From contig JAFZZS010000007.1 in NCBI GenBank assembly GCA_017615655.1, positions 59,463 to 123,462 of the forward strand: 64,000 nucleotides of DNA, in the 5' to 3' direction. Source of the stretch: Alphaproteobacteria bacterium (GTDB lineage Bacteria; Pseudomonadota; Alphaproteobacteria; Rs-D84). Made by a program: the position numbers and the translations under genes. Numbering within the stretch: position 1 is the first letter of the stretch; the number at the start of each line of letters is the position of its first letter. The notes under the pieces are model-generated. The model ran no database searches. It had not been told where the DNA came from and worked only from the letters and a program-made list of their open reading frames with translations. This document shows, piece by piece, positions 8,294-23,956 of this stretch.

Positions 8294-8306
8294 TAAGGAA
8301 TGTGTT

Positions 8307-8942
8307 ATGAAAAAGATATTATTTTGCTTATTGTGTATACTGCCAATGACCGCTGGTGCAGATGTTATTTATGATACCCAGCAAGCCAGCTACACGACCA
8401 GGGTTACCAAAAACAGCGATGCTTTTGCATCGGTGCACAGGTTTTACCTTGGCGCCATGTACGATTTTTCAATGTGGATGGATTATGTCGGGGATTCGGA
8501 TATTGCACATGGTAAAAATGTGTCGGGTTTCGATATTGTTGCCGGCTTTCGACCATACGATATAATTCGTATCGAGGCTGATTATATGAACACGCGTGCA
8601 AAATGGGATTTGTTTGCTATAAACGCAAATACATTGTTCATTAATACAATTGTTGATGCACGTATAGATAATCTTTACCGCACGTTTTATAAACAGCACT
8701 TAGTCCCATATGTCGGTGCAGGGGTGGGGTTGACGTGGACCGGCAGTGACGATGTTAACGTAAAGAATGATACAGGTGTATCGGTTGCGGCAATGGCAGG
8801 ACTAGGAATAGAATGTAGCGAATATTTTACGATTGATTTAGGATATCGCTATGTTTACATGTTCAAACCAAAAATTGAGCCGATGCCTGATTTGAACCCG
8901 GCGTCACATCAGATTCGTGCCGGTGTAAGAGTAAATTTCTAG
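8307..8942 (+). CDS. outer-membrane beta-barrel protein (8-strand Omp25/OmpW-like paralogue)
   Basis: Signal peptide MKKILFCLLCILPMTAGA; YVGAGVGLTW glycine strand; C-terminal IRAGVRVNF. Confidence 0.65.
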   Translation: MKKILFCLLCILPMTAGADVIYDTQQASYTTRVTKNSDAFASVHRFYLGAMYDFSMWMDYVGDSDIAHGKNVSGFDIVAGFRPYDIIRIEADYMNTRAKWDLFAINANTLFINTIVDARIDNLYRTFYKQHLVPYVGAGVGLTWTGSDDVNVKNDTGVSVAAMAGLGIECSEYFTIDLGYRYVYMFKPKIEPMPDLNPASHQIRAGVRVNF

Positions 8943-10221: not shown

Positions 10222-10470
10222 ATGACACACGATGATGTTTGGCGGGCAATAGAACAATTTGCGATGGCACATGGAATGTCATGTTCAGGTTTAGCACGCT
10301 GTAGCGGGCTGGATCCTACGACTTTTAACAAAAGTAAACGTTGGACCAAGGAAGGTCAGCCACGGTGGCCGTCAACAAATAGTATATCTAAAATATTGTC
10401 TTCGACAGGCGCATCTATCCAGGAATTTACCCGATTCATCGATGATAAAGGCAACGATTTCTCAAAATAA
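10222..10470 (+). CDS. phage-CI/LexA-type HTH DNA-binding protein, N-terminal domain only (no S24 peptidase domain)
   Basis: DVWRAIEQFAMAHGMSCSGLARCSGLDPTTFNKSKR matches the HTH N-terminus of alphaproteobacterial prophage repressors. 82 aa, so the protein is truncated or stand-alone. Confidence 0.6.
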   Translation: MTHDDVWRAIEQFAMAHGMSCSGLARCSGLDPTTFNKSKRWTKEGQPRWPSTNSISKILSSTGASIQEFTRFIDDKGNDFSK

Positions 10471-10510: not shown

Positions 10511-10981
10511 ATGCCGGTTTTTTTGTTGGACAGTCTGTTTTTAATAGATTATTCTGTAAGTATGTTATCAGGAATTCGAATTTTCTCATCCGATAAATAT
10601 TGGCAACGAATCGTTGCTGAATTGAATGCGACATTGGTCCAAGATTCAAAATTTGCGGATATTAACCTGGATACCCTGAATTTATCTCTACCCATTTCAT
10701 TAATTGAATTAAAATCGATAATGCTTTCTGTATCCGATGGGGATGCGGTTTTAAAAAAGATTTTTGATAAACCTGTTAATCTATCACCATTGCAAACTCA
10801 AATTGTGGTTAAACTTTACAAAAGTGGTGGCATGACAGCGGACGAACTTAAAATATCTTTGGGGTACGATATAAATGCAACCACACATACAGTTGAAACG
10901 GCTATATACAGTCTGCGTAAACTATTTGGACATAATTTTATAATAAATGACGAAGGAATATTTAAGATTGGCGGGATATAA
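10511..10981 (+). CDS. OmpR/PhoB-type winged-helix DNA-binding protein without receiver domain
   Basis: C-terminal LSPLQTQIVVKLYKSGGMTADELKISLGYD...TVETAIYSLRKLFG...GIFKIGG matches the trans_reg_C winged helix. The N-terminal 80 aa has no receiver motifs. True start may be the internal Met at 10565. Confidence 0.5.
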   Translation: MPVFLLDSLFLIDYSVSMLSGIRIFSSDKYWQRIVAELNATLVQDSKFADINLDTLNLSLPISLIELKSIMLSVSDGDAVLKKIFDKPVNLSPLQTQIVVKLYKSGGMTADELKISLGYDINATTHTVETAIYSLRKLFGHNFIINDEGIFKIGGI

Positions 10982-11633
10982 GGTATTATCTTTTGATAAA
11001 ATATCAAGTACACAGACATACGCACATGACATGATTGCCCAAGGGAAAGCATCTGACCGAATTGCAATTGTTGCAGCGGCACAGTATGCTGGTCGTGGTC
11101 GATATAGACGAAAATGGGTGTCTCATCACGGAAATCTGTACGTAAGTTTCATTTTCCATTGCCCAGAACGTGATCCGCGACTTTCATATGCAGTGGCGGT
11201 GGCAATTGCAGAAACGGTTATTTCTTTTGGAATATCGCCTTTGATAAAATGGCCAAATGACATTTTAATAGATAATGCCAAAGTGGCAGGCGCATTAATA
11301 GAATATGCTGGTCGATTCGTTATTGTTGGTATCGGAATAAACGTGCATACTAATCCCACAGTTCCAGAATATAAAACAACACGTTTGGACAAGTATAATG
11401 ATATTGAACTAACAGACCTGATGTCACGACTTGTAAAGAATTTAGACAGGTTTATAAATGCGGATTTTGATTTGGTGCGTAAAAGGTGGATGGAACTTGC
11501 CGCAGGATTGAACAAACTTGTAAAATATCGTGGCGAAATGGTGGAACTTATTGGGGTTAATGATAATGGTGCATTGGTCGTACGTCGTGGTTCTGAATAT
11601 TTATTGATTCATGGTGACGAAATTTTAATGTGA
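10947..11633 (+). CDS. birA: biotin-[acetyl-CoA-carboxylase] ligase BirA (catalytic plus C-terminal domain, no HTH)
   Basis: SSTQTYAH...IAIVAAAQYAGRGRYRRKWVSHHGNLYVS matches the BirA GRGRRGR-KW loop; KVAGALIEY. Confidence 0.85.
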   Translation: MTKEYLRLAGYKVLSFDKISSTQTYAHDMIAQGKASDRIAIVAAAQYAGRGRYRRKWVSHHGNLYVSFIFHCPERDPRLSYAVAVAIAETVISFGISPLIKWPNDILIDNAKVAGALIEYAGRFVIVGIGINVHTNPTVPEYKTTRLDKYNDIELTDLMSRLVKNLDRFINADFDLVRKRWMELAAGLNKLVKYRGEMVELIGVNDNGALVVRRGSEYLLIHGDEILM

Positions 11634-11670
11634 TGTATACGGCAGAAAACCGGTGTTTTTTATAAACTAC

Positions 11671-11699
11671 TTGACTTTAGGTCCTTTTTATGATATTAT
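11671..11699 (+). promoter_or_regulatory. consensus sigma70 promoter (TTGACT-17-TATTAT)
   Basis: -35 TTGACT at 11671..11676, a 17-nt spacer, -10 TATTAT at 11694..11699; drives the leader with tandem hairpins. Confidence 0.6.
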
Positions 11700-11726
11700 G
11701 ATGTACATCAAGGGGAAAGATATATT

Positions 11727-11776
11727 CACACGCAGGTGTGGATTTTTTTTTATACCGCACACATGTGCGGTTTTTT
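11727..11776 (+). terminator. two tandem terminator-like hairpins directly downstream of the promoter (candidate sRNA 3' ends or attenuator)
   Basis: cacac-gcag-gtgtg plus T9 (11727..11751), then ccgcac-acat-gtgcgg plus T6 (11755..11776). Confidence 0.5.
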
Positions 11777-11802
11777 CTTTGTAACCAAAGGAAATAAAAA
11801 TC

Positions 11803-12213
11803 ATGCAATTGGAAATTACTGAAATGCAGAACGGGACAATCTGTTTGGCAAATGCTATTGCGCGTATTGTTTATGCCGAAACTCTTGCGGTTTCTTTGCG
11901 GGTGATAGAAGCATTAACTTCCATGATTGCGAATGCAACACTAAATAACCGGCATGAAATAATAAAGATGTTATCAGATAAAAATATTTTCGAATCATTG
12001 AATACCGAATCATCGCGACATAAATATTTATCGGTGGATACATCAATACGTGGTTTCCAGGTTTGTGTACGTGTTGCAATTAGGATGTTGCATGGTAATT
12101 TAGATGATAGGTGTAATCACGCAACAAAGTTTCATCGGTCAGAATTATTACCCAGTTGGGCGATTGCATGTGGTTATGTCGCAGATATAGATGGAATATT
12201 GTTCTATGCATAA
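11803..12213 (+). CDS. hypothetical protein, possibly SleB-like cell-wall hydrolase (phage endolysin?)
   Basis: 136 aa; weak resemblance of TICLANAIARIVYAE to the Hydrolase_2 CLAxAIYxEA motif. First gene of the phage-like cluster. Confidence 0.3.
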   Translation: MQLEITEMQNGTICLANAIARIVYAETLAVSLRVIEALTSMIANATLNNRHEIIKMLSDKNIFESLNTESSRHKYLSVDTSIRGFQVCVRVAIRMLHGNLDDRCNHATKFHRSELLPSWAIACGYVADIDGILFYA

Positions 12214-12231
12214 ATTCAAAGGAATCGTCAT

Positions 12232-12420
12232 ATGGAACGTTTTATCCATGGTGGTTTTTTTGCGAATCGCAAAATACAGATAATGACATGTGTCGGAATA
12301 GTATCCGCGTTGTGTGCATATCTTGTTGGCGATTCGGATATATATGCCACCGCCCAGGCAATTATTGCGGTCTGTGGTGTTTATTGGTTGCATAAATCTA
12401 AAACTAGTAAAGGAAAATAA
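12232..12420 (+). CDS. small single-TM membrane protein (holin-like?)
   Basis: 62 aa; hydrophobic core VGIVSALCAYLVG...AIIAVCGVYWL; basic C-terminus. Confidence 0.3.
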   Translation: MERFIHGGFFANRKIQIMTCVGIVSALCAYLVGDSDIYATAQAIIAVCGVYWLHKSKTSKGK

Positions 12421-12421
12421 A

Positions 12422-13078
12422 ATGGAAAATATACCAGAAAAATTTTTAAACAAAGACGGCACACTAAACAGTGATGCATTGATGAAATCATATTCTGAAC
12501 TTGAAAAAAAGATTGGAACGATGATATCTGTTCCTGATGACGAATCAGATGAAGCAACGCAAAACCGCTTTCGTCGGGCGATTGGTGTTCCTGAAAGTGC
12601 TGATGATTATCCACATAATGAATTATTTGATAATGAAAATGTACGTCAAAAATTTCATGAAATTGGTTTAACAAGTTCACAAGTTGAAAAAATTTATGAT
12701 ATCGCCGAAGAATTTTTATCACCGATGTTTTCAAGAATTTTTTCTATTGAACAAGAATCAAATGCGATGCTAGAACTGAAAAAATTTTTTGGCTCAGATG
12801 AAAAAATGCGTGATGCATTTATTGCAATAAAATCTTTTGGCGAGAAATTTTTACCTGTAGACGCATTTAATGAATTATGCGCCAGCCCCCAGGGAATACA
12901 AGGCATTTACAAGATGATGCAATCAATGGAACCAAGTGTTGAAACTGCTACATCAACTATAGAAAATTTAACTGATTCTGATTTACGTCGTATGATGCGT
13001 GATCCAAAATATTGGCGCGATCACGATGAAGAATATGTGCGTAAAATTGAAAACGGATTTAAAAAATTATATTCCTAG
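12422..13078 (+). CDS. acidic phage scaffold-like protein (position-equivalent to T7 gp9)
   Basis: 219 aa, very acidic and helical; lies immediately upstream of the capsid gene; RBS aaaggaaaataaaATG. The ORF-track start at 12314 is probably upstream read-through. Confidence 0.4.
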   Translation: MENIPEKFLNKDGTLNSDALMKSYSELEKKIGTMISVPDDESDEATQNRFRRAIGVPESADDYPHNELFDNENVRQKFHEIGLTSSQVEKIYDIAEEFLSPMFSRIFSIEQESNAMLELKKFFGSDEKMRDAFIAIKSFGEKFLPVDAFNELCASPQGIQGIYKMMQSMEPSVETATSTIENLTDSDLRRMMRDPKYWRDHDEEYVRKIENGFKKLYS

Positions 13079-13196
13079 TGAATATTTTTGATAAAAAAAT
13101 TACTTTTCTTCTTTACTAATTTTTTTCTTTCGTATAAAATGAAATCAAGAACAAAAGAATTTGTTCTATCCAAAAAAAATACGAAAGGAGAGAAGA

Positions 13197-13490
13197 ATGG
13201 CATTCACATTCTTGAAAACCGCTGCAAAGAAGCCTGCAGCAAAGAAACCGGCAGCAAAGAAACCAGCTGCAAAGAAACCAGCTGCAAAAAAAGTTGCAGC
13301 AAAGAAACCAGCAGCAAAGAAACCAGCTGTAAAAAAAGTTGCAGCAAAAAAACCAGCAGCAAAGAAACCAGCTGTAAAAAAAGTTGCAGCAAAGAAACCA
13401 GCTGCAAAGAAAGTTGTTGCAAAAAAAGTTGCAGCAAAGAAACCAGCTGCTAAAAAAGCTTGCGCAAAAAAATGTGCAAAGAAAAAATAA
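13197..13490 (+). CDS. histone H1-like basic repeat protein (AAKKP pentapeptide repeats)
   Basis: MAFTFLKTAAKKPAAKKPAAKK...; 15-nt tandem repeats; SD aaaggagagaagaATG 7 nt upstream. The other two same-region ORFs (13088..13453, 13116..13505) are repeat-induced artefacts. Confidence 0.6.
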   Translation: MAFTFLKTAAKKPAAKKPAAKKPAAKKPAAKKVAAKKPAAKKPAVKKVAAKKPAAKKPAVKKVAAKKPAAKKVVAKKVAAKKPAAKKACAKKCAKKK

Positions 13491-13510
13491 TAATGTTATA
13501 GACATTATGA

Positions 13511-13586
13511 AATGCCCGTAAAATCGGGCATTTTTTTATATTAAAAATTTTCAGTCAGATATAAAAAGTCTGACTGAATCTTTTTA
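13511..13586 (+). terminator. two consecutive rho-independent terminators
   Basis: atgcccg-taaaat-cgggcat plus T7 (13511..13538); tcagtcaga-tataaaaa-gtctgactga plus T5 (13551..13586). Confidence 0.75.
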
Positions 13587-13715
13587 TGGATAATCCATTT
13601 TTTATGGACCCAATTCGATTTGTTTTCGGCGTCACATCGACATAACCGCTAATAAATTATTTGGCGGGCAAAATTTGTTTGCCTTGATTTAATCATTTTA
13701 ACAAAAGGAAAAATT

Positions 13716-14531
13716 ATGTCTGTTTCCATAGATCAGGTTTTTGTAAAACAATTTGAAGCAGATGTCCATTTGGCTTATCAGCAAATGGGAACAAAACTGC
13801 GTTCTACGATTCGCAGCAAATCTGGGGTCGTAGGCACTTCTACAACATTTCAAAAAATTGGCAAAGGAACTGCCAGCACGAAATCACGTCATGGTATTGT
13901 GCCAGTCATGAATCTTAATCATGCACCCGTAGAATGCACATTGCAGGATTATTACGCAGGTGATTGGGTTGACGCACTGGATGAATTGAAAATCAATATT
14001 GATGAACGTCGTGTTGTTGCATCTGCAGGCGCGTATGCATTGGGTCGCAAAACAGATGAATTAATCGTTGCGGCAATGAACAATGCAACCACATATGTTG
14101 GTGATTATTCCACAGGTCTTACCAAAACGTTAATTTTAACAGCACTGGAAAAATTAAATGAAAAAGATGTTCCAGATGATGGACGCAGATTCGGTGTTAT
14201 CGGTGTAAAGCAATGGAATGAATTGCTTGGTATAACCGAATTTTCATCCGCAGATTATGTTGGAAACGATTTGCCATTCATTAACGGATGCGAAACAAGA
14301 AAGTGGCTTGGTATTACATGGATTATGTATAACGATTTACCAATCTCTTCGGCGCATCGCGATTGCTTTATTTATCATGCTTCAAGTGTCGGGCATGCGT
14401 GTGGCCAAGAGGTTAAGACCGATATTACATGGCATGGTGAACGTGCAGCACACTTTATCAGCAATAGTATGTCGCAAGGGGCAGTATTAATAGACAGTGA
14501 TGGTATTGTGCGTGTTAAATGTGGCGAATAA
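13716..14531 (+). CDS. T7-like major capsid protein (gp10 homologue, shortened)
   Basis: VFVKQFEADVHLAYQQMGTKLRSTIRSKSGVVGTSTTFQKIGK parallels T7 gp10 LFLKVFGGEVLTAFARTSVTTSRHMVRSISSGKSAQFPVLGR. 271 aa. Confidence 0.7.
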   Translation: MSVSIDQVFVKQFEADVHLAYQQMGTKLRSTIRSKSGVVGTSTTFQKIGKGTASTKSRHGIVPVMNLNHAPVECTLQDYYAGDWVDALDELKINIDERRVVASAGAYALGRKTDELIVAAMNNATTYVGDYSTGLTKTLILTALEKLNEKDVPDDGRRFGVIGVKQWNELLGITEFSSADYVGNDLPFINGCETRKWLGITWIMYNDLPISSAHRDCFIYHASSVGHACGQEVKTDITWHGERAAHFISNSMSQGAVLIDSDGIVRVKCGE

Positions 14532-14548
14532 AACAAAGGGAGTAGGCA

Positions 14549-14779
14549 ATGGCTTTTCAGAATAAAAATTTGTCGGTAATTGCGTATGCAAATGGTTTTA
14601 CGTTGTGGCATTACGCTGCGAATGAAACAATGGCAACCATCACAGCAAGTGGTTATTTTAATATGGTCAAAACATTGATGAATACAGGTGATGTTGTGAT
14701 TATCAATGCATCTGATAAAACATCAATTAAAAAAATTGCTGTGGGTGATAGTGCTGTTACAACTGCCGCATTAGATTAA
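14549..14779 (+). CDS. small phage-cluster protein of unknown function
   Basis: 76 aa ORF between the capsid and gp11-like genes. Confidence 0.35.
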   Translation: MAFQNKNLSVIAYANGFTLWHYAANETMATITASGYFNMVKTLMNTGDVVIINASDKTSIKKIAVGDSAVTTAALD

Positions 14780-14788
14780 TTTTTTTGA

Positions 14789-14825
14789 ATCGGGCCGGAT
14801 TTCCGGCCCAAATTTAATTTTTATA
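14789..14825 (+). terminator. rho-independent terminator after the capsid gene block (position analogous to T7 Tphi)
   Basis: cgggccgga-tt-tccggccc then aaatttaattttt. Confidence 0.65.
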
Positions 14826-14839
14826 AATAAGGTAGAAAA

Positions 14840-15358
14840 ATGCTAACGAAAATAGATTTATGTTCAATGGCGTTGTTAAAACTTGGTGAAAATCCAATTC
14901 AATCATTGTCAGATGATACCGCAACCGCAAAGCTTGGGCGTACGTTGGTCGATTTTGTTATAGATAGTTTGCTTACGATGCATCCGTGGAAATTTGCATG
15001 CAGAACATATAACCTGAATGCGAATATAGACGGTAGTTTCAATATACCCACAGATGTATTGCGTATTGTTAAAACAAATGGTCGCGTAATGGAAGATAAA
15101 ATAATTTCAGATTCTAAAGAAATTAGTATTACCGCGATTGTGCGTATATCTCCGGACAAATTTCCAAACTATTTTTCATCGCTTGTTGTAACAAAACTAG
15201 CCACAGAATTTTGTATGCCTATTACAGGCGATCAAACCGTATTTAGAACACTGGTCGCACTTTATGAAACAGAGTTACAAAATGCAAAATTCATAGACAG
15301 CACAACGTCGATAAATCCACAAATAGAAAATTTTTCACTTGTAGATGTTCGTTTCTAG
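14840..15358 (+). CDS. tail tubular protein A (T7 gp11 homologue)
   Basis: CSMALLKLGENPIQSLSDDTATAKLGRTLVDFVIDSLLTMHPWKF aligns with T7 gp11 [42 protein letters not shown]. Confidence 0.65.
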   Translation: MLTKIDLCSMALLKLGENPIQSLSDDTATAKLGRTLVDFVIDSLLTMHPWKFACRTYNLNANIDGSFNIPTDVLRIVKTNGRVMEDKIISDSKEISITAIVRISPDKFPNYFSSLVVTKLATEFCMPITGDQTVFRTLVALYETELQNAKFIDSTTSINPQIENFSLVDVRF

Positions 15359-15373
15359 TGTACGGGGGAAATC

Positions 15374-17080
15374 ATGGGAAATTTTATAAAAACACAAACT
15401 TCATTTGCTAATGGCGAGATTTCGCCCAATTTTTTTGCGAATGATAATATGCATGGTCTTGCATATATGGAAAATATGGATGTTATCCCGGGTGGGGGAC
15501 TTACCAGGCGTGCCGGACTAAAATCATTAGCTACATTACCATCTAGTGCCAGACTGATTTCTTTTTCAGCGTCTGAAAATGATAATTATGTCCTAGCGAT
15601 TATGAATGGAATTATTCGCGTGTTTTCTAGTGGCGAATTTGTGCAAGATATTATAGCGCCATGGACATCAAATGATTTGATGAAATTGCAATATGCGCAA
15701 CGTTTTGGAACGATAATATTTGTTCATCCAGATTATAAACCGCGAATACTTTCTTGTGAATCCAGCTCATTTCAATTGCTAGAATTTACATTTACATATA
15801 CCGATGATTTAAACAACATAAATATGCCGTTTATGCGATTCGAAGACTCTGAAGGTATAACATTAACACTTACGCATACAAATGACGGAGTGCAACTTAC
15901 AACGAATCAAGATTTTTGGACTCAAGATAATGTTTATGGGCATTTATCATTGCTTGGTAAAACATTTCTGGTACAAAGTTATATAGATTCGCGGAATATA
16001 ATCGCAGTATGTAATGGAACATTTACATACCCAAATACGCCAGTGTCTGATTGGAAAGAGGCGGTATTTAGTTATCGTCGGGGTTGGCCAATAAGCATAA
16101 CATTTCATCAAAATAGATTGGTGTTTGGCGGATCCAAATCATGGCCTGGTGGTGTTTGGATGTCTTGTGTCGGACAGCATAGAAATTTTAATACGGGTAC
16201 AGGACTTGATGACGAGGCGATATTTTTCACCTTACTATCAGGACGCAGGCAACATATTTGCACATTGGTAAGCAGTGATAATTTACAGATTCTTACATCT
16301 GAAGGCGAATGGGCGGTGTCCAATAAACCGCTGACACCCGAATCAGTAAATATAAAAATGCATACATCTGTGGGCAGTCCCGCGGATATATATTTGCCCC
16401 CACAAGAAATGGAAGGCAAAACGATATTCGTTTCTAATAACAAACAGGATATTCGTGAACTGACGTTGGATGAATTGGGCGAAAATTATAATGCGAATAA
16501 TTTATGCGAGTTATCTGCTCATTTGATACAAAAACCAATTGATATTGCGTACAACAAAAAACAAAAGCGTTTATTTGTCGTTATGCAAGACGGTAACATG
16601 GCCGTGTTAAATCGTGATGTATCACTGGATATATCTGCGTGGGGCCGTTATACCACAAGTGGTAAATTCTGTTCGGTCGTTGTTTGTGAAGGTAATACAT
16701 TTGTTGTTACGAAACGTGATACAACTTTTTATCTTGAGCAATTTTCTGATTCCGAAATGATAGATGCAACGAATCAAAAATATACGGTACGTGCCGTAGG
16801 GTTACCACTGATGTCGGCAGGGCATAATGCACACAAAATTCAAATAAGGAAGATTATTGCAAGATTGTATAATTCCAAGACGTTGTTTATAAATGGTCTG
16901 CGCGCAAATTTGCCCAATAATGCATATTCCATAGATTCTGGGGGGTATTCAGGCGACATTTCTATGAATACCATTGGAACATGTTTACCAATTAGTGACG
17001 CACCATGGGAATTATCTACGACAGATGCAATGCCGTTAACAATATTGTCTATAACAATATATGGCAGATATCAAATTTAA
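15374..17080 (+). CDS. tail tubular protein B (T7 gp12 homologue)
   Basis: N-terminus FANGEISPNFFANDNMHGLAYMENMDVIPGGGLTRRAGL...IRVFSSG parallels T7 gp12 LKGGISQQPDILRYPDQGSRQVNGWSSETEGLQKRPPL...GIRVFDLSG. 568 aa. Confidence 0.65.
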   Translation: MGNFIKTQTSFANGEISPNFFANDNMHGLAYMENMDVIPGGGLTRRAGLKSLATLPSSARLISFSASENDNYVLAIMNGIIRVFSSGEFVQDIIAPWTSNDLMKLQYAQRFGTIIFVHPDYKPRILSCESSSFQLLEFTFTYTDDLNNINMPFMRFEDSEGITLTLTHTNDGVQLTTNQDFWTQDNVYGHLSLLGKTFLVQSYIDSRNIIAVCNGTFTYPNTPVSDWKEAVFSYRRGWPISITFHQNRLVFGGSKSWPGGVWMSCVGQHRNFNTGTGLDDEAIFFTLLSGRRQHICTLVSSDNLQILTSEGEWAVSNKPLTPESVNIKMHTSVGSPADIYLPPQEMEGKTIFVSNNKQDIRELTLDELGENYNANNLCELSAHLIQKPIDIAYNKKQKRLFVVMQDGNMAVLNRDVSLDISAWGRYTTSGKFCSVVVCEGNTFVVTKRDTTFYLEQFSDSEMIDATNQKYTVRAVGLPLMSAGHNAHKIQIRKIIARLYNSKTLFINGLRANLPNNAYSIDSGGYSGDISMNTIGTCLPISDAPWELSTTDAMPLTILSITIYGRYQI

Positions 17081-17097
17081 AATCAAAGGAGTAACAA

Positions 17098-17445
17098 ATG
17101 GGACAAATGATTTCAGATGTATCAGATATATTGAATTATCAAAGTAATAAAAAAAATGCTAATGCAACAAAAAAACAAATTTTGGCCGATATTGTAGCTG
17201 ATGAAAATCAGAAACAAAATCTTGTTAAAAAAGTGCTGGCAACGCAACGTGCAAAATACGGGGCATCAGGTATGAATAACAAGGGGCTTACCGAGGATGC
17301 AGTGTTAACAAGGTTAAAAAAAGAAACCGAACAACCATATGATTCGAAAAAAGAGGTCAATATTAGAAAGTTGAAAAATGCCAAGGTAAAAAAGAAAAAT
17401 TTATTGCTAACTGCATTGGCACATTTGGACAAATTGGTCGGATGA
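17098..17445 (+). CDS. putative small terminase subunit (position of T7 gp18)
   Basis: 115 aa, basic, directly upstream of terL; assignment by position only. Confidence 0.3.
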   Translation: MGQMISDVSDILNYQSNKKNANATKKQILADIVADENQKQNLVKKVLATQRAKYGASGMNNKGLTEDAVLTRLKKETEQPYDSKKEVNIRKLKNAKVKKKNLLLTALAHLDKLVG

Positions 17446-17449
17446 TAAT

Positions 17450-18043
17450 ATGAGTGTTTATAGCCAATTTTTAGATTCTTGGAACGAGGTAATCGGGTTT
17501 ACCGCTCCGGAACACCATTATCATATGACAGATTTTCTGGGAAATGTTATTAACGGAAATTCACGTCATGGATTACTAATGGCGTTTAGGCATTCTGGTA
17601 AATCAACGATTGTTGGAATTTTTGCGGCTTGTACTTTGTTTTTACGTCCGGAAACGCGAATATTAATATTGTCAGCAGAAACCCACCTTGCTACACGAAT
17701 GGTTATGCATATTCGTAATATATTGGAAAATCATCCATGGTGTACAGATTTGGTGCCAAAAAATAAACGCGAATGGGCGGAAAATAAAATAACGGTTAAT
17801 CGAGCCATAGGAATTCGTGAACCATCGGTTGTTTGTCAGGGAATATACGGCAATATAACAGGAATGCGTGCAGATTTAATAATATGCGATGATGTAGAGG
17901 TTCCAAACACCTGTAACACCGCGAGAAAGCGTACAGGACTGCGCGACAAATTGCGCGAACTTGATTTTATACTTTCACCAAACGGTGCGATGATTTACAT
18001 TGGAACCCCGCATACATTGGACACAATTTACAGAACAGACTAA
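17450..18043 (+). CDS. terminase large subunit, N-terminal ATPase fragment (gene interrupted)
   Basis: Walker A AFRHSGKST; Walker B ADLIICDDVE; motif III IYIGTPHT. The ORF stops after 197 aa, where the ATPase domain is incomplete. Confidence 0.8.
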   Translation: MSVYSQFLDSWNEVIGFTAPEHHYHMTDFLGNVINGNSRHGLLMAFRHSGKSTIVGIFAACTLFLRPETRILILSAETHLATRMVMHIRNILENHPWCTDLVPKNKREWAENKITVNRAIGIREPSVVCQGIYGNITGMRADLIICDDVEVPNTCNTARKRTGLRDKLRELDFILSPNGAMIYIGTPHTLDTIYRTD

Positions 18044-18702
18044 TTTTCTATAGAATTTGTCTGTTGGGGCAAGGAACTAATCAATGTGTGCAATTTCTGT
18101 AACAATTCGGATCCTTCTTCACCAAACATGGGTAAATATGTTTCATATTCTGGCAAATCTACCTGAAGTTGCGCACGCACACGATCATTTACAGGTTGCT
18201 TGATAAGGTCTTTGGCTTTTATCCATATATTATAAGCATTCCACATACGTGCAATTTGATCAAACTTGTCGAACATGTCAGTATCATTTGTCAGTATAGT
18301 TCGTATAGATGAAACCCAATCCGAACCAAAGCGACGAACAACGGGCGTAGATATGAAATTCTCTAGACCACGTTGATTCGGGGTAAAGGCGTTAATAGCA
18401 ACCTTTAATTCTTTTAGTTCCGGTTCTGTTATTTGAGTGTTTATTGGGCGTTCCGCAAATATACCACCATATGGTAATAATTCGCGAGATATAGAATCCA
18501 TAGGGGTCTTGCCACTGCGCAGGTTATTTATATGTTCAGATAATAATTTACCTGTCGGTAAATCTTTTAGTTCCTGGATTACGTCATCGGTGGCTTCGTC
18601 AATAAAAATTTTGTTTAACACGGACCAACCGCCTGCGATAACATGTGCTTGACGATAAAGGTTTAACAACTTCTGTGCGACAATGCTTGCTTTGGCTTTC
18701 AT
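18040..18702 (-). CDS. hypothetical protein (part of the insertion within terL)
   Basis: 220 aa; no motif recognised; stop codon overlaps the stop of the terL N-fragment convergently. Confidence 0.4.
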   Translation of the reverse strand: MKAKASIVAQKLLNLYRQAHVIAGGWSVLNKIFIDEATDDVIQELKDLPTGKLLSEHINNLRSGKTPMDSISRELLPYGGIFAERPINTQITEPELKELKVAINAFTPNQRGLENFISTPVVRRFGSDWVSSIRTILTNDTDMFDKFDQIARMWNAYNIWIKAKDLIKQPVNDRVRAQLQVDLPEYETYLPMFGEEGSELLQKLHTLISSLPQQTNSIEN

Positions 18703-18729
18703 CTCGTTTAATCCCCCATATTTAAAGAT

Positions 18730-19740
18730 TTATTCGGTCAAAACCATAATAACTTTGTGCATAGTTTTGGCGGTAATTTTCTCGTCAGGTGATATCATTT
18801 GACCATAAACTTTGCCCTTGGAGTCTTTACGAATCACTGCGATATTTGCACGAACAGTTTCTTCGGGTTTAAGTGCTTTGAAATCGGCGTCTATAAAGAC
18901 CGCCAAATCACCAACCGTGGCATTTATCTTCGCGTCTGCAAAAACATATGATTTTTCCGGAATAAAACCACCAAGACGCTTTGAATTTGGAATAACCGCA
19001 TAAACACCCTTGCGACCTTCAAGATTCGCAGGAGCATTTATCATTGTATTATCCGATTTTTTTAATGCGATATACTTGCCATCTGGATGACCAAATACGG
19101 GTACCAATTTACGACGTGCGGTTTCATATAATTTTGCACTGTAAAGGTGCCCTTGGGAATCACCGAAATCTGCGGACGAATCACCTGGAACCAAAATAGA
19201 TTTTACACGTTCTTTGACTTTGTTCATTTGTTTGATAAGTTCACCAGATTTGTAAAGTTGAGCAATTTTATCAAACATCGTCTCAACAGAACAAGCAAAC
19301 GAATTCGCAAGTGGTTCTATTTCATTTTGATATACTTCGCGCTGACCAACTTCAATTTTATGATAAACTGATAAGGTCATACCAGCATCTTTCGCCGCCT
19401 GAGCAATAGTCTTTCCGGATTGTTGGCGAATTTTACGTAACCCGCTACCAAATAATTTAAGACCACTGTCTTCGTTATCATTCATACGGCGTGTGATTTC
19501 GTCCTGCCATTTAGATGCAACTTCGTCTGTATCTTTGATAAAAATATCTGACAGCTTACAGCCCAAAATATTGCAGATATTCAACAACTGTTTTTGATTA
19601 AGGCGTCGGACACCTTTTTCAATCTTGGACACTGCAGACAAAGACAATCCTGAACGACGTGCCAGTTCAGTCATCTTCATACCTGCTGCAAGACGAATAT
19701 TGCGAATATTGTTTGGAAAAATGATTTCTTCCTGGGCCAT
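18730..19740 (-). CDS. CI-like transcriptional repressor with two XRE-family HTH domains and a degenerate S24-like C-terminal domain
   Basis: HTH1 NIRLAAGMKMTELARRSGLSLSAVSKIEKG; HTH2 LRKIRQQSGKTIAQAAKDAGMTLSVYHKIEVG; C-terminal beta-rich domain lacks a clear GDSM catalytic Ser-Lys dyad. Confidence 0.7.
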   Translation of the reverse strand: MAQEEIIFPNNIRNIRLAAGMKMTELARRSGLSLSAVSKIEKGVRRLNQKQLLNICNILGCKLSDIFIKDTDEVASKWQDEITRRMNDNEDSGLKLFGSGLRKIRQQSGKTIAQAAKDAGMTLSVYHKIEVGQREVYQNEIEPLANSFACSVETMFDKIAQLYKSGELIKQMNKVKERVKSILVPGDSSADFGDSQGHLYSAKLYETARRKLVPVFGHPDGKYIALKKSDNTMINAPANLEGRKGVYAVIPNSKRLGGFIPEKSYVFADAKINATVGDLAVFIDADFKALKPEETVRANIAVIRKDSKGKVYGQMISPDEKITAKTMHKVIMVLTE

Positions 19741-19762
19741 GTAAACCTCCTTGTATAAAATC

Positions 19763-19781
19763 TTGACAAAATGATAGTCAA
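19763..19781. promoter_or_regulatory. palindromic operator TTGACaaaatgataGTCAA overlapping the -35 of the repressor promoter
   Basis: On the minus strand: TTGACT-17-TTTATA-caAGGAGGtttacATG; the inverted repeat TTGAC-N9-GTCAA spans the -35 and spacer. Confidence 0.5.
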
Positions 19782-19817
19782 ATTTTGAAAACTTGGCAAG
19801 AAAATAATTATATAAAA

Positions 19818-21377
19818 TTACAAATCGATATCATCTGGTATTGCATTGATATCAATTTTGGGAACATCGGCGACCTGTTCAGGTGTATTTGATGCGAAAT
19901 CATCCGAGAACCCAGGAACATTGCTTTCCATTTCGTTAAGGTTATCAAACAAACTAAATTCTGCAAGGAAAGCAAGATGAACAGTATCTGTGCGCCCATG
20001 ACGGTTTTTCCCAATGATAAGGTCCGCTTTGCCTTTGGCTTTTTCTAGTCGAGCCTGCCAAGAACCCACAGATTTTTCGTTTGGCGTATTTGATAAGCGG
20101 TAAGATGGATCCCGGTTCTGCAAGTAATATTCCTCGCGATAGGTGAACATAACAATGTCAGCATCCTGTTCAATTGACCCGGAATCACGTAAATCGGATA
20201 ATTGTGGTCGTTTATCATCACGTGATTCGACACTGCGCGAAAGTTGTGAAAGTGCAATGACCGGAACATTTAATTCCTTGGCAAGCATCTTTAGACCGCG
20301 CGTTATTTCTGACAATTCTTGAACGCGGTTATCCTTGTTTTTGCCGCCTGGCGAAGTAATAAGTTGTAAATAGTCAATAACAATAAGCGAGATTCCATTA
20401 TATTTTCTGGCAAGCCTCCGTGCGCGAGTGCGTATCATCGGAACTGACATACCAGGTGTGTCATCAATGAACAAAGGAATACGACTTATTGCATCGGAAA
20501 ACTGGGTTAATTTTAGAAAATCTTCATCTGTCAAAGATTTACCTTCGCGCATTGCAGATGCCGGGATTCGTGATTGTGACGACAGCACGCGTGCAGCTAA
20601 TTCAGAGGCCCCCATTTCAAGACTGAAAAAGGCGACCGCACCTTTGAATTGCGGATTCGCACGTCCAGAGTAAATTGCGTTTGCCGCATTAAATGCGATA
20701 TTCATGGCCAATGCAGTTTTACCCATACCTGGACGACCAGCAATTATAAGCAAATTGGACTTATGCATTCCACTTATTGCACGATCCAAATCGGTTAACC
20801 CGGTTGTTAAACCAGATAAGTTGCCATCAGCCTTGTAAGCGATTTCTGTTTCAACAAGTGCTTCCTTTAGGGCATTTGCAATCGGAACGACGTCGCGACC
20901 AACATCCCCAGTAGTTGCCAAATTAAAAAGTTTTTGTTCGGCATTTTCAACCTGGGCAGACACTGGATTGTCCATATCTTCGACAAACGCATCATCCATG
21001 ATAGATTGCGCAAGATTTATAAGTTCACGACGCGTTGCATTTTCATGAACAATACGACCATATTGTTCAACATTTACTACGGTTGCACTGGCCCCAGCAA
21101 GTTGAGTCAAATAATCAACACCACCAACGGATTCCAGGGTACCTTGTTGATCCAAATAATTCTTTATAGTGATTATGTCAAATGGTACACCTGCCGCAAA
21201 CAACCGTACAGCAAGTTTATAAATTTCCTGGTGTGCAGGATGAGAAAAATCTTCGGGGCGCAGGAATTCGGTAACCTTTTCCAGTGCGCGATTGCTTATC
21301 AAAATCGCGGCCAATACGGCCTGTTCGGCCTCGATATTTGTTGGTAAAGTTTTGGGAGTAAAGTCCATGTCAAACAT
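19818..21377 (-). CDS. dnaB: replicative DNA helicase DnaB (full length, bacterial type) with short acidic C-terminal extension
   Basis: N-terminal domain LPTNIEAEQAVLAAILIS; Walker A IIAGRPGMGKTALAMN; Walker B LIVIDYLQL; arginine finger region; 519 aa. Confidence 0.92.
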   Translation of the reverse strand: MFDMDFTPKTLPTNIEAEQAVLAAILISNRALEKVTEFLRPEDFSHPAHQEIYKLAVRLFAAGVPFDIITIKNYLDQQGTLESVGGVDYLTQLAGASATVVNVEQYGRIVHENATRRELINLAQSIMDDAFVEDMDNPVSAQVENAEQKLFNLATTGDVGRDVVPIANALKEALVETEIAYKADGNLSGLTTGLTDLDRAISGMHKSNLLIIAGRPGMGKTALAMNIAFNAANAIYSGRANPQFKGAVAFFSLEMGASELAARVLSSQSRIPASAMREGKSLTDEDFLKLTQFSDAISRIPLFIDDTPGMSVPMIRTRARRLARKYNGISLIVIDYLQLITSPGGKNKDNRVQELSEITRGLKMLAKELNVPVIALSQLSRSVESRDDKRPQLSDLRDSGSIEQDADIVMFTYREEYYLQNRDPSYRLSNTPNEKSVGSWQARLEKAKGKADLIIGKNRHGRTDTVHLAFLAEFSLFDNLNEMESNVPGFSDDFASNTPEQVADVPKIDINAIPDDIDL

Positions 21378-22215
21378 AGTATATGAAAAAAATGTTTTTT
21401 CAACCCCTTTTTTATCGGGTTACGATGAACTAAGAATCCCAATCATTAATTCCGACGGAAGACCAGTATGGCCCGAAGTATTTCCAATTGAAAAGATTGA
21501 AAAAATTCGTAAAACCGTTGGAGAACGACATTTTTTGGCCCAAATGATGCTAGATTATGTTCCGTCAGATAAAATTAGACTTGATCCGGGGAGCATCAAG
21601 TTATATGACGATGATTTTGATATACATAATTCCAAATTAGGAGAAAATCAAATCACTGGTATGGCAATTTACTGGGATCCATCCAGTGGTCGCAAAAATT
21701 CTGACAACAGTGTGTGTGTTCTTATTTATCGTGATGACAAAAATATGCGTGTATTTGTGCACGATATACTTTATATGATTGTTCCCGAGACCGTTGAATA
21801 CCCATTGGCATATCAATGTAATCAGGCTTTGGAATTTGTGCGGCGTCATCATGGGCATAATATACATGTTGAAACAAATGGAATAGGTGGGGCTTTTCCA
21901 GAAATAATGCGAACCAATAATCCAAATTCGCAATACAAAGTTCAAATTTTGCCGATAAGTAACAGCCGGCGCAAAGAAGATCGGATTCTAGATACCATAG
22001 AGCCACTGTTAAGCACAGGGCGGCTTTATGCGCATCGCCGTATAACACAAACTCCACTAATAGCAGAAATGTTGGCATGGACCCCACTAGGCAGTGGGGA
22101 ACATGATGATGGTTTAGATGCATTAGCGGGGGCAATTAATGCGCATCCAAATGTGGTGCGCCCAATGGCATCGACATTTCAAAGATATGTTGCCAACACA
22201 AACTTTAAAATCTAA
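21367..22215 (+). CDS. terminase large subunit, C-terminal (lid plus RNaseH-like nuclease) fragment
   Basis: Nuclease motifs GMAIYWDPSSG and GEHDDGLDALAGAI. Start codon overlaps the dnaB start (21377) on the opposite strand. Confidence 0.78.
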   Translation: MSNIVYEKNVFSTPFLSGYDELRIPIINSDGRPVWPEVFPIEKIEKIRKTVGERHFLAQMMLDYVPSDKIRLDPGSIKLYDDDFDIHNSKLGENQITGMAIYWDPSSGRKNSDNSVCVLIYRDDKNMRVFVHDILYMIVPETVEYPLAYQCNQALEFVRRHHGHNIHVETNGIGGAFPEIMRTNNPNSQYKVQILPISNSRRKEDRILDTIEPLLSTGRLYAHRRITQTPLIAEMLAWTPLGSGEHDDGLDALAGAINAHPNVVRPMASTFQRYVANTNFKI

Positions 22216-22236
22216 CAAATAACAAAAGGAATAATT

Positions 22237-23463
22237 ATGAAATATGATTTACAAAAAATGTATACGCATGCATTGGCGGTTCGTGAACCATGGCTTAAAA
22301 GGTGGTACGATGCGCGCAAGTACACAATGCCGACATCAGATGAAGATATGGCAATGTTATTTGATGCGACCGCTGCGGATGCTGCAGATAACCTGGCAGC
22401 ATGTATGTATTCTTTGCTTACGCCCCCGGAATCATTGTGGTTGAATCTTGTTCCCGAAAGCCCAGAATCACCAAATGCAGAAGTTGCAACAGCTGTACTG
22501 CGTGCAAATCTTAACGATTCAAATTTTTATACAACAATTCATCAATGCTATATGGATTTGGTAACATTGGGAACGGCCTGTTTATTTATGGCAGAAAGTC
22601 CAATTGGTGCATCCAGTGCATTTTCATTTACTGCAATTCCAATGAAAGACATTGCGATTTTGCCGAATGCAGTTTTTCATACCACATCTATTTCGATTAG
22701 TGACGTGATGGCGCGTTATCCAGAATGGACACCTACACGTGAAATTGCCGACAAATTAAAACAAAATACCGATTTTTCGGTACGTTTAGTCCAGGCATTA
22801 ATAGGTTCTGATTTTACAGCGTGGTTGGATGTTGGTGGAAATCTTGAAAACAATATTGTATCGTGCGGAACGTTTGAAACAAATCCATACTTAATTTTCC
22901 GTTGGTCCGTAACCAGTGGTGAGCAATATGGTGTCGGACCAATTTTACGTGCATTACCTGATATAAAAACCGCAAATAAAGTTGTGGAACTGGTTTTGAA
23001 AAACGCAACTATTGCCGTCAGTGGTATATGGCAGGCAGACGATGATGGTGTCATAAATCTTGAAAATATTAATTTAACCCCCGGGGCAATAATTCCAAAA
23101 GCAGTAGGTAGCAGCGGTTTGACTCCACTTGCCACTGGGGCAAATTTTGATGTTTCACAAATTATACTAAAAGATCTACGCGAACGAATTCGTCATGCAT
23201 TACTTGCCGATAGATTGGGATTATTATCTGAAAAAGAAATGACGGCCACTGAAATATTGGCACGTAACGCGGACATGTTACGCATATTGGGTGCGACGTA
23301 TGGTCGATTATTGCACGAATTTATTCGTCCACTTTGTGACCGGGGACTGCAAATACTGTCACGTCGTGGTATCATAGATAAAATATCATTGCACAGTGAT
23401 GCGGAGTTAAAATACATTGCACCAATTGCCCAAATGGTTGCAGAAAACAACACAATTATATAA
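22237..23463 (+). CDS. head-to-tail connector (portal) protein, T7 gp8-like
   Basis: WLKRWYDARKYTMPTSDED parallels T7 gp8 YERLKNDRAPYETRAQNCAQYTIPSLFPKD. FRWSVTSGEQYGVGPILRALPDIKTANKVVELVLKNA parallels gp8 MVRLDGESYGRSYIEEYLGDLRSLENLQEAIVKMS. Confidence 0.7.
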   Translation: MKYDLQKMYTHALAVREPWLKRWYDARKYTMPTSDEDMAMLFDATAADAADNLAACMYSLLTPPESLWLNLVPESPESPNAEVATAVLRANLNDSNFYTTIHQCYMDLVTLGTACLFMAESPIGASSAFSFTAIPMKDIAILPNAVFHTTSISISDVMARYPEWTPTREIADKLKQNTDFSVRLVQALIGSDFTAWLDVGGNLENNIVSCGTFETNPYLIFRWSVTSGEQYGVGPILRALPDIKTANKVVELVLKNATIAVSGIWQADDDGVINLENINLTPGAIIPKAVGSSGLTPLATGANFDVSQIILKDLRERIRHALLADRLGLLSEKEMTATEILARNADMLRILGATYGRLLHEFIRPLCDRGLQILSRRGIIDKISLHSDAELKYIAPIAQMVAENNTII

Positions 23464-23476
23464 CAGGGAATTTATT

Positions 23477-23683
23477 ATGAGAAATTTAGAATTGTCATAC
23501 GCTAAGACATTTTCATCTGATTCTGGCGCAATTGTTATCGCACATTTGCGCCGAATAACAATTGAACGTGTGTTGGGACCAAATGCAACAGAATCAGAAT
23601 TACGTACACTTGAAGGCGCACGCGCATTGGTACATCAAATTGAACAGTTGATATTACGGGGGCGGCAAAATGCAAAAACATAA
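23477..23683 (+). CDS. hypothetical small protein (start uncertain)
   Basis: ORF 23417..23683; plausible start at MRNLELSYAK. Confidence 0.3.
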   Translation: MRNLELSYAKTFSSDSGAIVIAHLRRITIERVLGPNATESELRTLEGARALVHQIEQLILRGRQNAKT

Positions 23684-23927
23684 TGGTATCAGCGGAATAA
23701 TAGAAACATTACGCAACAGTTGGTTTTTAATTGCGTTTATTGCGGGACTTATATACTGGGTTGCGCGCCAGGATAATGCATTGATCGAACTTGATAGGTT
23801 AACTGTTCGAATGACTACATTAGAAAATCGTACTACGGTATTAGAAACAGGAATAGGGCAATTACAATTAAAAATCGATGCAATCAAAGAAGATTTGACT
23901 CTAATTAAAACTGCCGTGATTAAGTAA
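23670..23927 (+). CDS. small membrane protein with C-terminal coiled coil (holin/spanin-like?)
   Basis: TM segment WFLIAFIAGLIYWVA; heptad-like LTVRMTTLENRTTVLETGIGQLQLKIDAIKEDL. Confidence 0.35.
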   Translation: MQKHNGISGIIETLRNSWFLIAFIAGLIYWVARQDNALIELDRLTVRMTTLENRTTVLETGIGQLQLKIDAIKEDLTLIKTAVIK

Positions 23928-23956
23928 AAAATCCCCCGCATTTTGCGGGGGAATAA
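23926..23956. terminator. rho-independent terminator (mainly for yraN on the minus strand)
   Basis: tcccccgc-atttt-gcggggga with an A-run on the plus side, which is a U-run for the minus-strand transcript. Confidence 0.75.

Follow-up and report, generated by a model that had tools for sequence, protein, structure and literature searches.

In a 64,000-nucleotide window of an uncultured alphaproteobacterium of the lineage Rs-D84 (contig JAFZZS010000007.1, positions 59,463 to 123,462), a near-consensus promoter runs directly into two intrinsic terminators, here called T1 and T2, at the head of a set of phage-like genes. We lean towards the view, from comparison of related genomes, that this region acts as the 5' control unit for a T7-like module of the podovirus type, domesticated and vertically inherited in Candidatus Enterousia and its relatives. 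The unit itself is, on a modest balance of probability, a gate that is off by default and opened by a processive antiterminator, as in lambda PR'-tR' with Q, the Bartonella gene-transfer agent (BaGTA) with BrrG, or the Caulobacter system with GafZ.

To place the unit in context, one genome per species was scanned, which gave 80 loci with a homologue of the downstream hydrolase (45–76% identity). These species-level loci come from Candidatus Enterousia and relatives, all uncultured Alphaproteobacteria, and counts below refer to them unless another sample is named. Terminators upstream of the capsid gene were counted in 68 loci and integrity of the capsid open reading frame (ORF) in 66. Candidatus Enterousia has been placed in the order Rs-D84, whose genomes are mostly smaller than 1 Mb and lack the tricarboxylic acid (TCA) cycle and respiratory chains (PMC12306168).

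A conserved promoter followed by two terminators

The gap between the stop codon of a biotin ligase gene and the ATG at 11803 is 169 nt long. It contains, in order, a weak hairpin (T0), the promoter, a purine-rich stretch of about 18 nt, T1, T2 and a Shine-Dalgarno (SD) sequence. The SD sequence, AAGGAA, follows T2 and precedes the ATG. The elements are as follows.

11641–11664, + strand: T0, a weak hairpin with a T-run, directly after the biotin ligase stop and upstream of the promoter
11671–11699, + strand: sigma70 promoter with extended -10; -35 TTGACT at 11671–11676, 17-nt spacer, TG at 11691–11692, -10 TATTAT at 11694–11699, with an A/T-rich stretch upstream
11707–11724, + strand: predicted start and purine-rich leader of about 18 nt, CAUCAAGGGGAAAGAUAU; the start is placed at A11707, which a conserved C precedes
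11725–11751, + strand: T1, intrinsic terminator; 7-bp stem TTCACAC/GTGTGGA at 11725–11742, loop GCAG, U9 (T at 11743–11751), folding energy -9.3 kcal/mol
11754–11777, + strand: T2, intrinsic terminator; 7-bp stem ACCGCAC/GTGCGGT at 11754–11771, loop ACAT, U6 (T at 11772–11777), folding energy -11.5 kcal/mol

An original prediction, made from this DNA alone, had called TTGACT-17-TATTAT a near-perfect sigma70 promoter. We read the same promoter directly and recovered it by scan, and it also carries the TG of an extended -10. The strict pattern TTGACW-N14-TG-N-TANNNT matches once in the 64 kb, against 0.09 matches expected. The design TTGAC[T/A]-17-TG-n-TAnnnT stands ahead of the hydrolase gene in all 80 loci, and 79 of them match the strict pattern; the exception, L023, has TACATT as its -10. 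All promoters detected by script have a spacer of 17 nt. Across the 80-species alignment no change is seen in TTGAC, T7, T19, the TG, or the TA and final T of the -10; TTGACTTT and the A/T pattern of the spacer are conserved too. The mean column identity of the whole alignment is 46%, and the flanking intergenic sequence diverges.

A conserved C-A, which provides a pyrimidine at -1 and a purine at +1, puts the predicted +1 at A11707, and the start at about 11706 proposed before fits this. Transcripts starting here would be about 43–45 nt long if they ended at T1 and 70–72 nt if they ended at T2. Within the leader, single columns are strongly conserved: C in 69/80, a purine in 79/80, T in 76/80 and AA in 77–79/80, and the T directly before T1 is invariant. 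A hexamer of the -10-like form NANNNT ends at this invariant T in 63 species, at about +12 to +17, commonly as GATTAT or AATTGT. In the window itself there are two candidate pause hexamers. The aligned one, AGATAT (11718–11723), fails NANNNT, and TATATT (11721–11726) sits 3 nt further downstream. The NANNNT hexamer before T1 could be a pause and loading site for a factor that acts on RNA polymerase.

Both hairpins, with their U9 and U6 tracts, lie ahead of the ORF at 11803 where the original prediction had put them, and its description of them is accurate. They are maintained by paired substitutions. For T1, compensatory changes occur in 5 of 7 pairs and 89% of alignment cells are paired; for T2 the figures are 7 of 7 and 94.5%. 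Taken together, the 14 pairs of T1 and T2 are formed in 91.8% of cells, compared with 76.0 ± 0.7% after shuffling (0 of 500 shuffles reach the native value) and 27–58% when partners are slid by 1–3 columns. The covariation score is 0.578, against 0.278 for shuffled alignments (0/500) and at most 0.14 for slid ones; RNAalifold agrees, and double-sided changes are found in 12 of the 14 pairs. Arms from the same species also pair better than arms taken from different species (T1, -7.3 vs -4.4 kcal/mol; T2, -12.8 vs -7.0 kcal/mol). A run of 5–9 T follows T1 in all 80 species, and at least 5 T occur among the 9 bases after T2, again in all 80.

Seven terminator-like sites occur in 2.5 kb, with 1.4 ± 1.3 expected, and none of 200 shuffles folds as stably as the intergenic RNA (z = -3.4). 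A covariance model built on the promoter-terminator unit finds this locus as its sole match in the 64 kb (106 bits), the next match scoring 27 bits. A DnaA box (TTWTNCACA) overlapping the 5' arm of T1 was considered and dropped; it is present with at most 1 mismatch in just 18/80 species.

The unit remains beside the downstream operon in L013, where the ligase gene is absent upstream, in L024, where 1.35 kb separate ligase and hydrolase, and in L060, where the upstream block is inverted. The unit thus belongs to the downstream genes. T0, which the original prediction had not listed, probably ends transcription of the biotin ligase operon upstream. In closer relatives its site holds a better-formed hairpin, ACACCGG/CCGGTGT, with a T-run, and in distant relatives it is absent.

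The phage-derived module downstream

The module spans 11671–23927 (12.3 kb) and carries T7/podovirus-like lysis, scaffold, capsid, tube A and B, terminase and portal genes. Its genes are listed here.

11803–12213, + strand: SleB/Hydrolase_2-like cell wall hydrolase; homologues carry PF07486, and there is a weak endolysin match in PHROG
12232–12420, + strand: holin-like protein, 62 aa, with two hydrophobic segments by reading of the sequence
12422–13078, + strand: T7-type scaffold protein (PF05396)
13197–13490, + strand: Lys/Ala-rich histone H1-like protein, 97 aa; PF07382 (HC2 family) at 57.8 bits, above cut-off
13716–14531, + strand: capsid (PF19821)
14549–14779, + strand: orf76, small protein
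14840–15358, + strand: tail tubular A
15374–17080, + strand: tail tubular B-like
17098–17445, + strand: orf115, 115 aa
17450–18043, + strand: T7-type large terminase, N-terminal ATPase half
18040–21377, - strand: three genes that interrupt the terminase gene, encoding a 220-aa helical protein (18040–18702), a CI-like regulator of 336 aa with two helix-turn-helix (HTH) domains (18730–19740) and the replicative helicase DnaB
21367–22215, + strand: terminase C-terminal nuclease half, with its own ATG at 21367
22237–23463, + strand: portal
23477–23683, + strand: Bbp19-like protein
23670–23927, + strand: 85-aa protein

The hydrolase and the holin-like gene form a putative lysis cassette, and the histone H1-like protein may condense DNA. 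The terminase is split cleanly between its ATPase and nuclease halves by 3.4 kb that include a cellular-type dnaB, and both halves are intact ORFs. L088, a species whose identity is 57%, has this layout too. The gene for the 220-aa protein converges on the terminase N-half and overlaps it by 4 nt, and no terminator lies between the two.

Module synteny is kept in about 78 species, and the genes from capsid to terminase N-half are intact in 62–66. The capsid is full length and free of stop codons in 66/66 loci, with a median identity of 83% (range 78–94%). This exceeds the values for the neighbouring biotin ligase (68%) and RlmD (63%). Neither an integrase nor phage replication genes were found among the genes of the 12.3-kb module. 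The intact structural genes and a capsid conserved above its housekeeping neighbours suggest an undescribed element like a gene-transfer agent (GTA). The features by which GTAs are classed at the level of genes are present, namely lineage-fixed phage-derived structural genes, vertical inheritance and purifying selection. As judged from these genes, the module is a domesticated, vertically inherited phage module of the GTA kind. Copies of the hydrolase gene with identical flanks are also present in several rumen metagenomes; there is zero variation among them in the region, so they are uninformative on selection.

Two species, L015 (around 8300–8790) and L065 (around 8300–8860), have lost the capsid-to-orf115 segment. 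Both still carry the leader, hydrolase, holin-like gene, scaffold and terminase N-half. These losses may reflect module decay in some lineages. A second side observation concerns a 121-aa ORF (13088–13453), whose reading frame differs from that of the histone H1-like gene call. At the far end, where the module faces a convergent gene on the minus strand, a GC-rich hairpin, TCCCCCGCATTTTGCGGGGGA, lies between the two at 23931–23951. Its T-run is on the minus strand only, so the plus-strand module has no canonical end terminator.

Further terminators ahead of the capsid gene

A polymerase that had escaped T1 and T2 would meet two more terminators before it reached the capsid gene. The intergenic region there has three elements.

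13509–13534, + strand: T3 terminator, between the histone-like and capsid genes
13550–13578, + strand: T4 terminator, arms TTCAGTCAGAT/GTCTGACTGAA
13579–13715, + strand: conserved structured capsid 5' untranslated region (UTR) of 137 nt, consisting of GGAUAAUCC, a covarying hairpin and GGACCC, then GGCGC, a hairpin and GCAUAACCA, then an SD sequence

At least one terminator precedes the capsid gene in 66/68 loci and at least two in 54/68, and 42 loci have an additional terminator ahead of the tube A gene. Terminator-like sites within genes are rare. Between 11.6 and 24.1 kb of the window, the strict plus-strand terminators are T1–T4 only, with none from 13.6 to 24.1 kb. Unlike T1–T3, T4 has arms (TTCAGTCAGAT/GTCTGACTGAA) that are near-invariant in sequence across about 68 species, which hints at a protein or RNase III site.

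No Rfam family matches the capsid 5' UTR at gathering score. The possibility that a sigma70 promoter lies between T4 and the capsid ATG was rejected, because the hairpins that stand between the conserved blocks vary in length, and these blocks cannot therefore be -35 and -10 elements. Since further terminators stand before the capsid gene and no conserved promoter follows them, processive read-through from the upstream promoter is favoured.

A proposed gate opened by a processive antiterminator, and its alternatives

The gate that we favour would work as follows. A strong, probably constitutive sigma70 promoter would initiate at about 11707 (step 1). By default, RNA polymerase would stop at T1 (about 45 nt) or else at T2 (about 70 nt), leaving the hydrolase, holin-like and structural genes off (step 2). 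A trans-acting processive antiterminator would make the polymerase termination-resistant near the promoter, possibly loading at a sigma-dependent pause at the conserved -10-like hexamer just before T1 (step 3). The modified polymerase would then pass T1 and T2, followed by T3 and T4 ahead of the capsid gene (step 4). The need to get past T3 and T4 as well suggests that the modification is processive. We infer where transcription starts, that it terminates in vivo, that a factor exists and how this factor loads.

The original prediction had proposed either an abundant small RNA (sRNA) or a conditional antitermination switch that gates the capsid module. Its elements are borne out in that the promoter, hairpins and U-tracts are kept in 80 species and are linked to the phage operon. 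What found no support is the form of the switch that relies on alternative antiterminator pairing.

Several observations weigh against a dedicated factor. No antiterminator gene was found among the window genes, and the gene directly upstream of the promoter encodes a biotin ligase. Q-family Pfam domains, AlpA and a NusG paralogue are absent from the 64-kb window in Pfam scans and listings. Two neighbours were examined as antiterminators and rejected, the 139-aa protein, whose model is an OmpR-like winged-helix regulator, and the 220-aa protein, whose helical model has no fold match. The -10-like hexamer is missing from the aligned position in 17/80 species, including this window, and NANNNT is common anyway in AT-rich DNA. 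Finally, the stability of T1 is moderate (median -7.7 kcal/mol), and leak alone might suffice.

The foremost alternative is a passive attenuator and insulator, to which we give a minor but real share of probability. Here T1 and T2 would block read-through from the ligase operon and damp a strong promoter to a low, noisy constitutive level. No antiterminator would exist, and rare stochastic read-through would yield a few expressing cells. Such an arrangement accords with the failure to find a factor gene among the window genes and with the moderate weakness of T1. Distant relatives have no terminator of its own behind the ligase gene, so that there the ligase operon, too, would end at T1 and T2. 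However, a weaker promoter would have achieved the same damping, yet the near-consensus extended -10 is invariant in 80 species. Four terminators in series would leave almost no capsid mRNA from leak, and a constitutive leak of the hydrolase and holin-like pair should be harmful.

Alternatively, the short transcript itself could be the product. On this account a trans-acting RNA of 45–72 nt would carry a conserved single-stranded 5' seed (CAUMAANAG...), a terminator hairpin and a U-tail, and expression of the operon would be a side effect of read-through. In favour of this, the RNA would be small, would start from a strong promoter of its own with a conserved 5' end, and would finish at a Rho-independent terminator. 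The best Rfam resemblances, OmrA-B (21 bits) and MicC, are sRNAs, although they are sub-threshold and score far below gathering. Against this, the purine-rich leader resembles a Shine-Dalgarno sequence and not its complement, and only about 10 positions are conserved in sequence. The location directly before a co-oriented operon, and the tandem-terminator design seen again before the capsid gene, point to control in cis. The extra conserved terminators before the capsid gene likewise favour a gate over an sRNA. We regard a functional sRNA as unlikely, and it could coexist with the gate, just as lambda PR' makes the short 6S RNA without Q.

Classical attenuation, in which a riboswitch, an RNA-binding protein switch or a leader peptide acts through an alternative antiterminator hairpin, is very improbable. 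One point in its favour comes from this window, where GUGUGG in the 3' arm of T1 can pair with CCGCAC in the 5' arm of T2 (11736–11760) to form a trp-like 2:3 duplex of -8.5 kcal/mol. The complementarity is not conserved elsewhere. Across the 80 species there is no covariation in the 2:3 pairing (-4.5 kcal/mol for native arms, -4.9 for arms of different species), and native and cross-species energies do not differ for it or for any other leader pairing tested, which largely refutes this explanation. The roughly 18 nt of leader before T1 leave too little room for an aptamer. With no covarying alternative pairing and so little sequence before T1, an alternative-hairpin switch is excluded or unlikely, and the check for alternative antiterminator pairing that the original prediction had suggested thus went against it. 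A start codon just before T1, behind an SD-like AAGAGG, would suit a leader peptide. The triplet is NTG in 39/80 species but NTA in 41/80, including this window, so the leader start codon is not conserved and leader-peptide attenuation is excluded or unlikely.

Searches for known RNA families gave no match. At gathering score, Rfam reports three tRNAs only over the whole window. A permissive search of 11600–11850 returned nothing near threshold, the best being OmrA-B at 21 bits against 40. The lack of a covarying alternative pairing, a leader start codon and an Rfam family argues for a factor rather than an RNA switch. Control of the RfaH type is also excluded or unlikely, since no ops element (GGCGGTAGnnT, at most 1 mismatch) occurs in 11700–11802.

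The last explanation, that T1 and T2 are only upstream-operon terminators and the promoter a chance match, can be set aside with near certainty: generic promoter-like hexamer pairs are indeed not enriched (15 vs 10.8 ± 3.3 shuffled), but the strict pattern matches at this one site in the window, 80 species share an invariant promoter core at a fixed distance to T1 while its flanks have diverged, and the unit is kept where the ligase gene is not upstream, so that the comparative data refute it.

Upstream neighbours and the search for a factor

Three genes upstream of the unit are listed here.

10222–10470: 82-aa HTH protein, median identity 85%, with a weak Cro/C1 HTH match
10562–10981: 139-aa OmpR/PhoB-like winged-helix protein without a full receiver domain, modelled
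10947–11633: group-I biotin-protein ligase, directly upstream of the unit

In nearly all species the genes of the 82-aa and 139-aa regulators come immediately before the ligase gene, and in L060 they are inverted along with it. The 82-aa protein was rejected as an antiterminator, having just the weak Cro/C1 HTH match. The Q families PF06530, PF03589 and PF06323 appear neither in Pfam scans of the neighbours nor among Pfam hits across the window and L088. Searching the PDB by sequence with the candidate antiterminator neighbours returned no matches.

Comparison with known antitermination systems

The closest precedent in layout is the Q cassette of lambdoid phages, which consists of a promoter, a sigma-dependent pause element, a terminator and the late genes (PMC9388147). 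As there, the unit here combines a strong sigma70 promoter with intrinsic terminators within tens of nucleotides, and co-oriented lysis genes are followed by head and tail genes. In most species a -10-like hexamer, a candidate for the pause element, lies in the initial transcribed region. Further terminators occur inside the operon, and passing them would require processive read-through. The differences are several. The lambdoid Q gene is directly upstream, whereas here a biotin ligase takes that place and PF06530, PF03589 and PF06323 are absent from the 64-kb window. Here the terminators are two in tandem, beginning no further than 19 and 48 nt from the start, and the candidate pause hexamer is at about +12 to +17, compared with +1 to +6 for the Q type. 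The structural genes are T7-like, and the element is fixed in a bacterial lineage instead of being carried by a phage.

A second precedent is BaGTA of Bartonella. It uses a constitutive promoter, PbgtA-K, with a -10-like NANNNT, an attenuating leader terminator and the Q21-like processive antiterminator BrrG (bioRxiv 10.1101/2024.11.20.624540). Both systems are domesticated phage modules of Alphaproteobacteria with a leader terminator before a capsid operon and, in most of the species studied here, a NANNNT downstream of the -10. The BaGTA antiterminator is encoded elsewhere, and by analogy the gate favoured here would likewise depend on a factor from outside the locus. The leader of BaGTA is 864 bp long with one weak L-shaped terminator, while the one described here has 96 nt and two canonical terminators. 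No BrrG/Q21-like fold was seen among the modelled neighbours, and the phage ancestry of the structural module differs.

In Caulobacter crescentus, full transcription of the GTA (CcGTA) needs bypass of terminators within the cluster, and the antiterminator GafZ is thought to load at the promoter (PMC11150451). The CcGTA promoter needs GafY and IHF, the terminator after its first gene is made of three 150-bp GC-rich repeats, and the cluster is RcGTA/HK97-like. The structural genes here are of the T7/podovirus type (PF19821 capsid, PF05396 scaffold, T7-type terminase and tail tubular proteins), and the module is therefore not of the RcGTA/GafA type. AlpA of Pseudomonas aeruginosa, as cited in PMC11150451, is a small DNA-binding protein with a promoter-embedded site that allows terminators before the alpBCDE lysis genes to be passed. 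Measured against that summary of AlpA, no Phage_AlpA-type protein was detected in the window, and the 82-aa HTH protein has the weak Cro/C1 match only.

A podovirus-like GTA-like element was first reported recently, in Faecalibacterium (FpGTA; PMC12946183). FpGTA also belongs to a gut bacterium and has chromosomal podovirus-type head, packaging and lysis genes split over two loci. The two differ in phylum and their genes are unrelated; particle production has been shown for FpGTA and is putative in Enterousia. Overall, the comparisons tip us towards reading the leader as a promoter-proximal antitermination gate in an unusually compact form with two terminators, placed on an independently domesticated phage module.

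A further-reaching proposal is doubtful. The leader would be the master switch of an undescribed particle system, T7-like in origin and GTA-like in kind, that all of Candidatus Enterousia and its Rs-D84 relatives share, with an antiterminator unrelated to Q, AlpA and GafZ. Read-through would extend for about 12 kb, past T3 and T4 and antisense through the genes for the CI-like regulator and DnaB, to the terminase C-half and portal. It would thereby silence the repressor and the helicase and make the decision irreversible.

A gate of the kind favoured here, if real, would offer a precise switch, defined by its sequence, for a particle system of phage origin in uncultured bacteria that are widespread in gut and rumen. 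Transfer of the leader to a surrogate host would allow a screen for the antiterminator, and the compact double-terminator form of the leader could be used as a marker for such modules in other genomes. The proposal that antitermination controls alphaproteobacterial GTAs would then extend to a third, independently domesticated phage type. That 12 kb of T7-like genes are kept and, on this reading, tightly controlled, despite the loss of the TCA cycle and respiration, argues that the particles serve the cell, in gene transfer or otherwise. In the papers found that mention Enterousia there is no apparent treatment of a phage-derived module, and the words 'phage' and 'capsid' are absent from PMC12306168.

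Phage relatives of the module

A scan of IMG/VR with the hydrolase gave four loci, at least one of which is a bacterial contig already in the set (L089 is the contig of L018). The nearest phage-like relatives are the pelagiphage EXVC031P and the faecal fragment MT838907. The promoter pattern of the leader has no match in MT838907. The histone H1-like gene, which sits between the scaffold and capsid genes in the window, is not found at that place in the faecal relative, and the scaffold and capsid genes are adjacent in both relatives. The gene order of MT838907 is portal, Bbp19, scaffold, capsid, small protein, tube A and tube B. This represents the ancestral order, and the arrangement in EXVC031P is similar.

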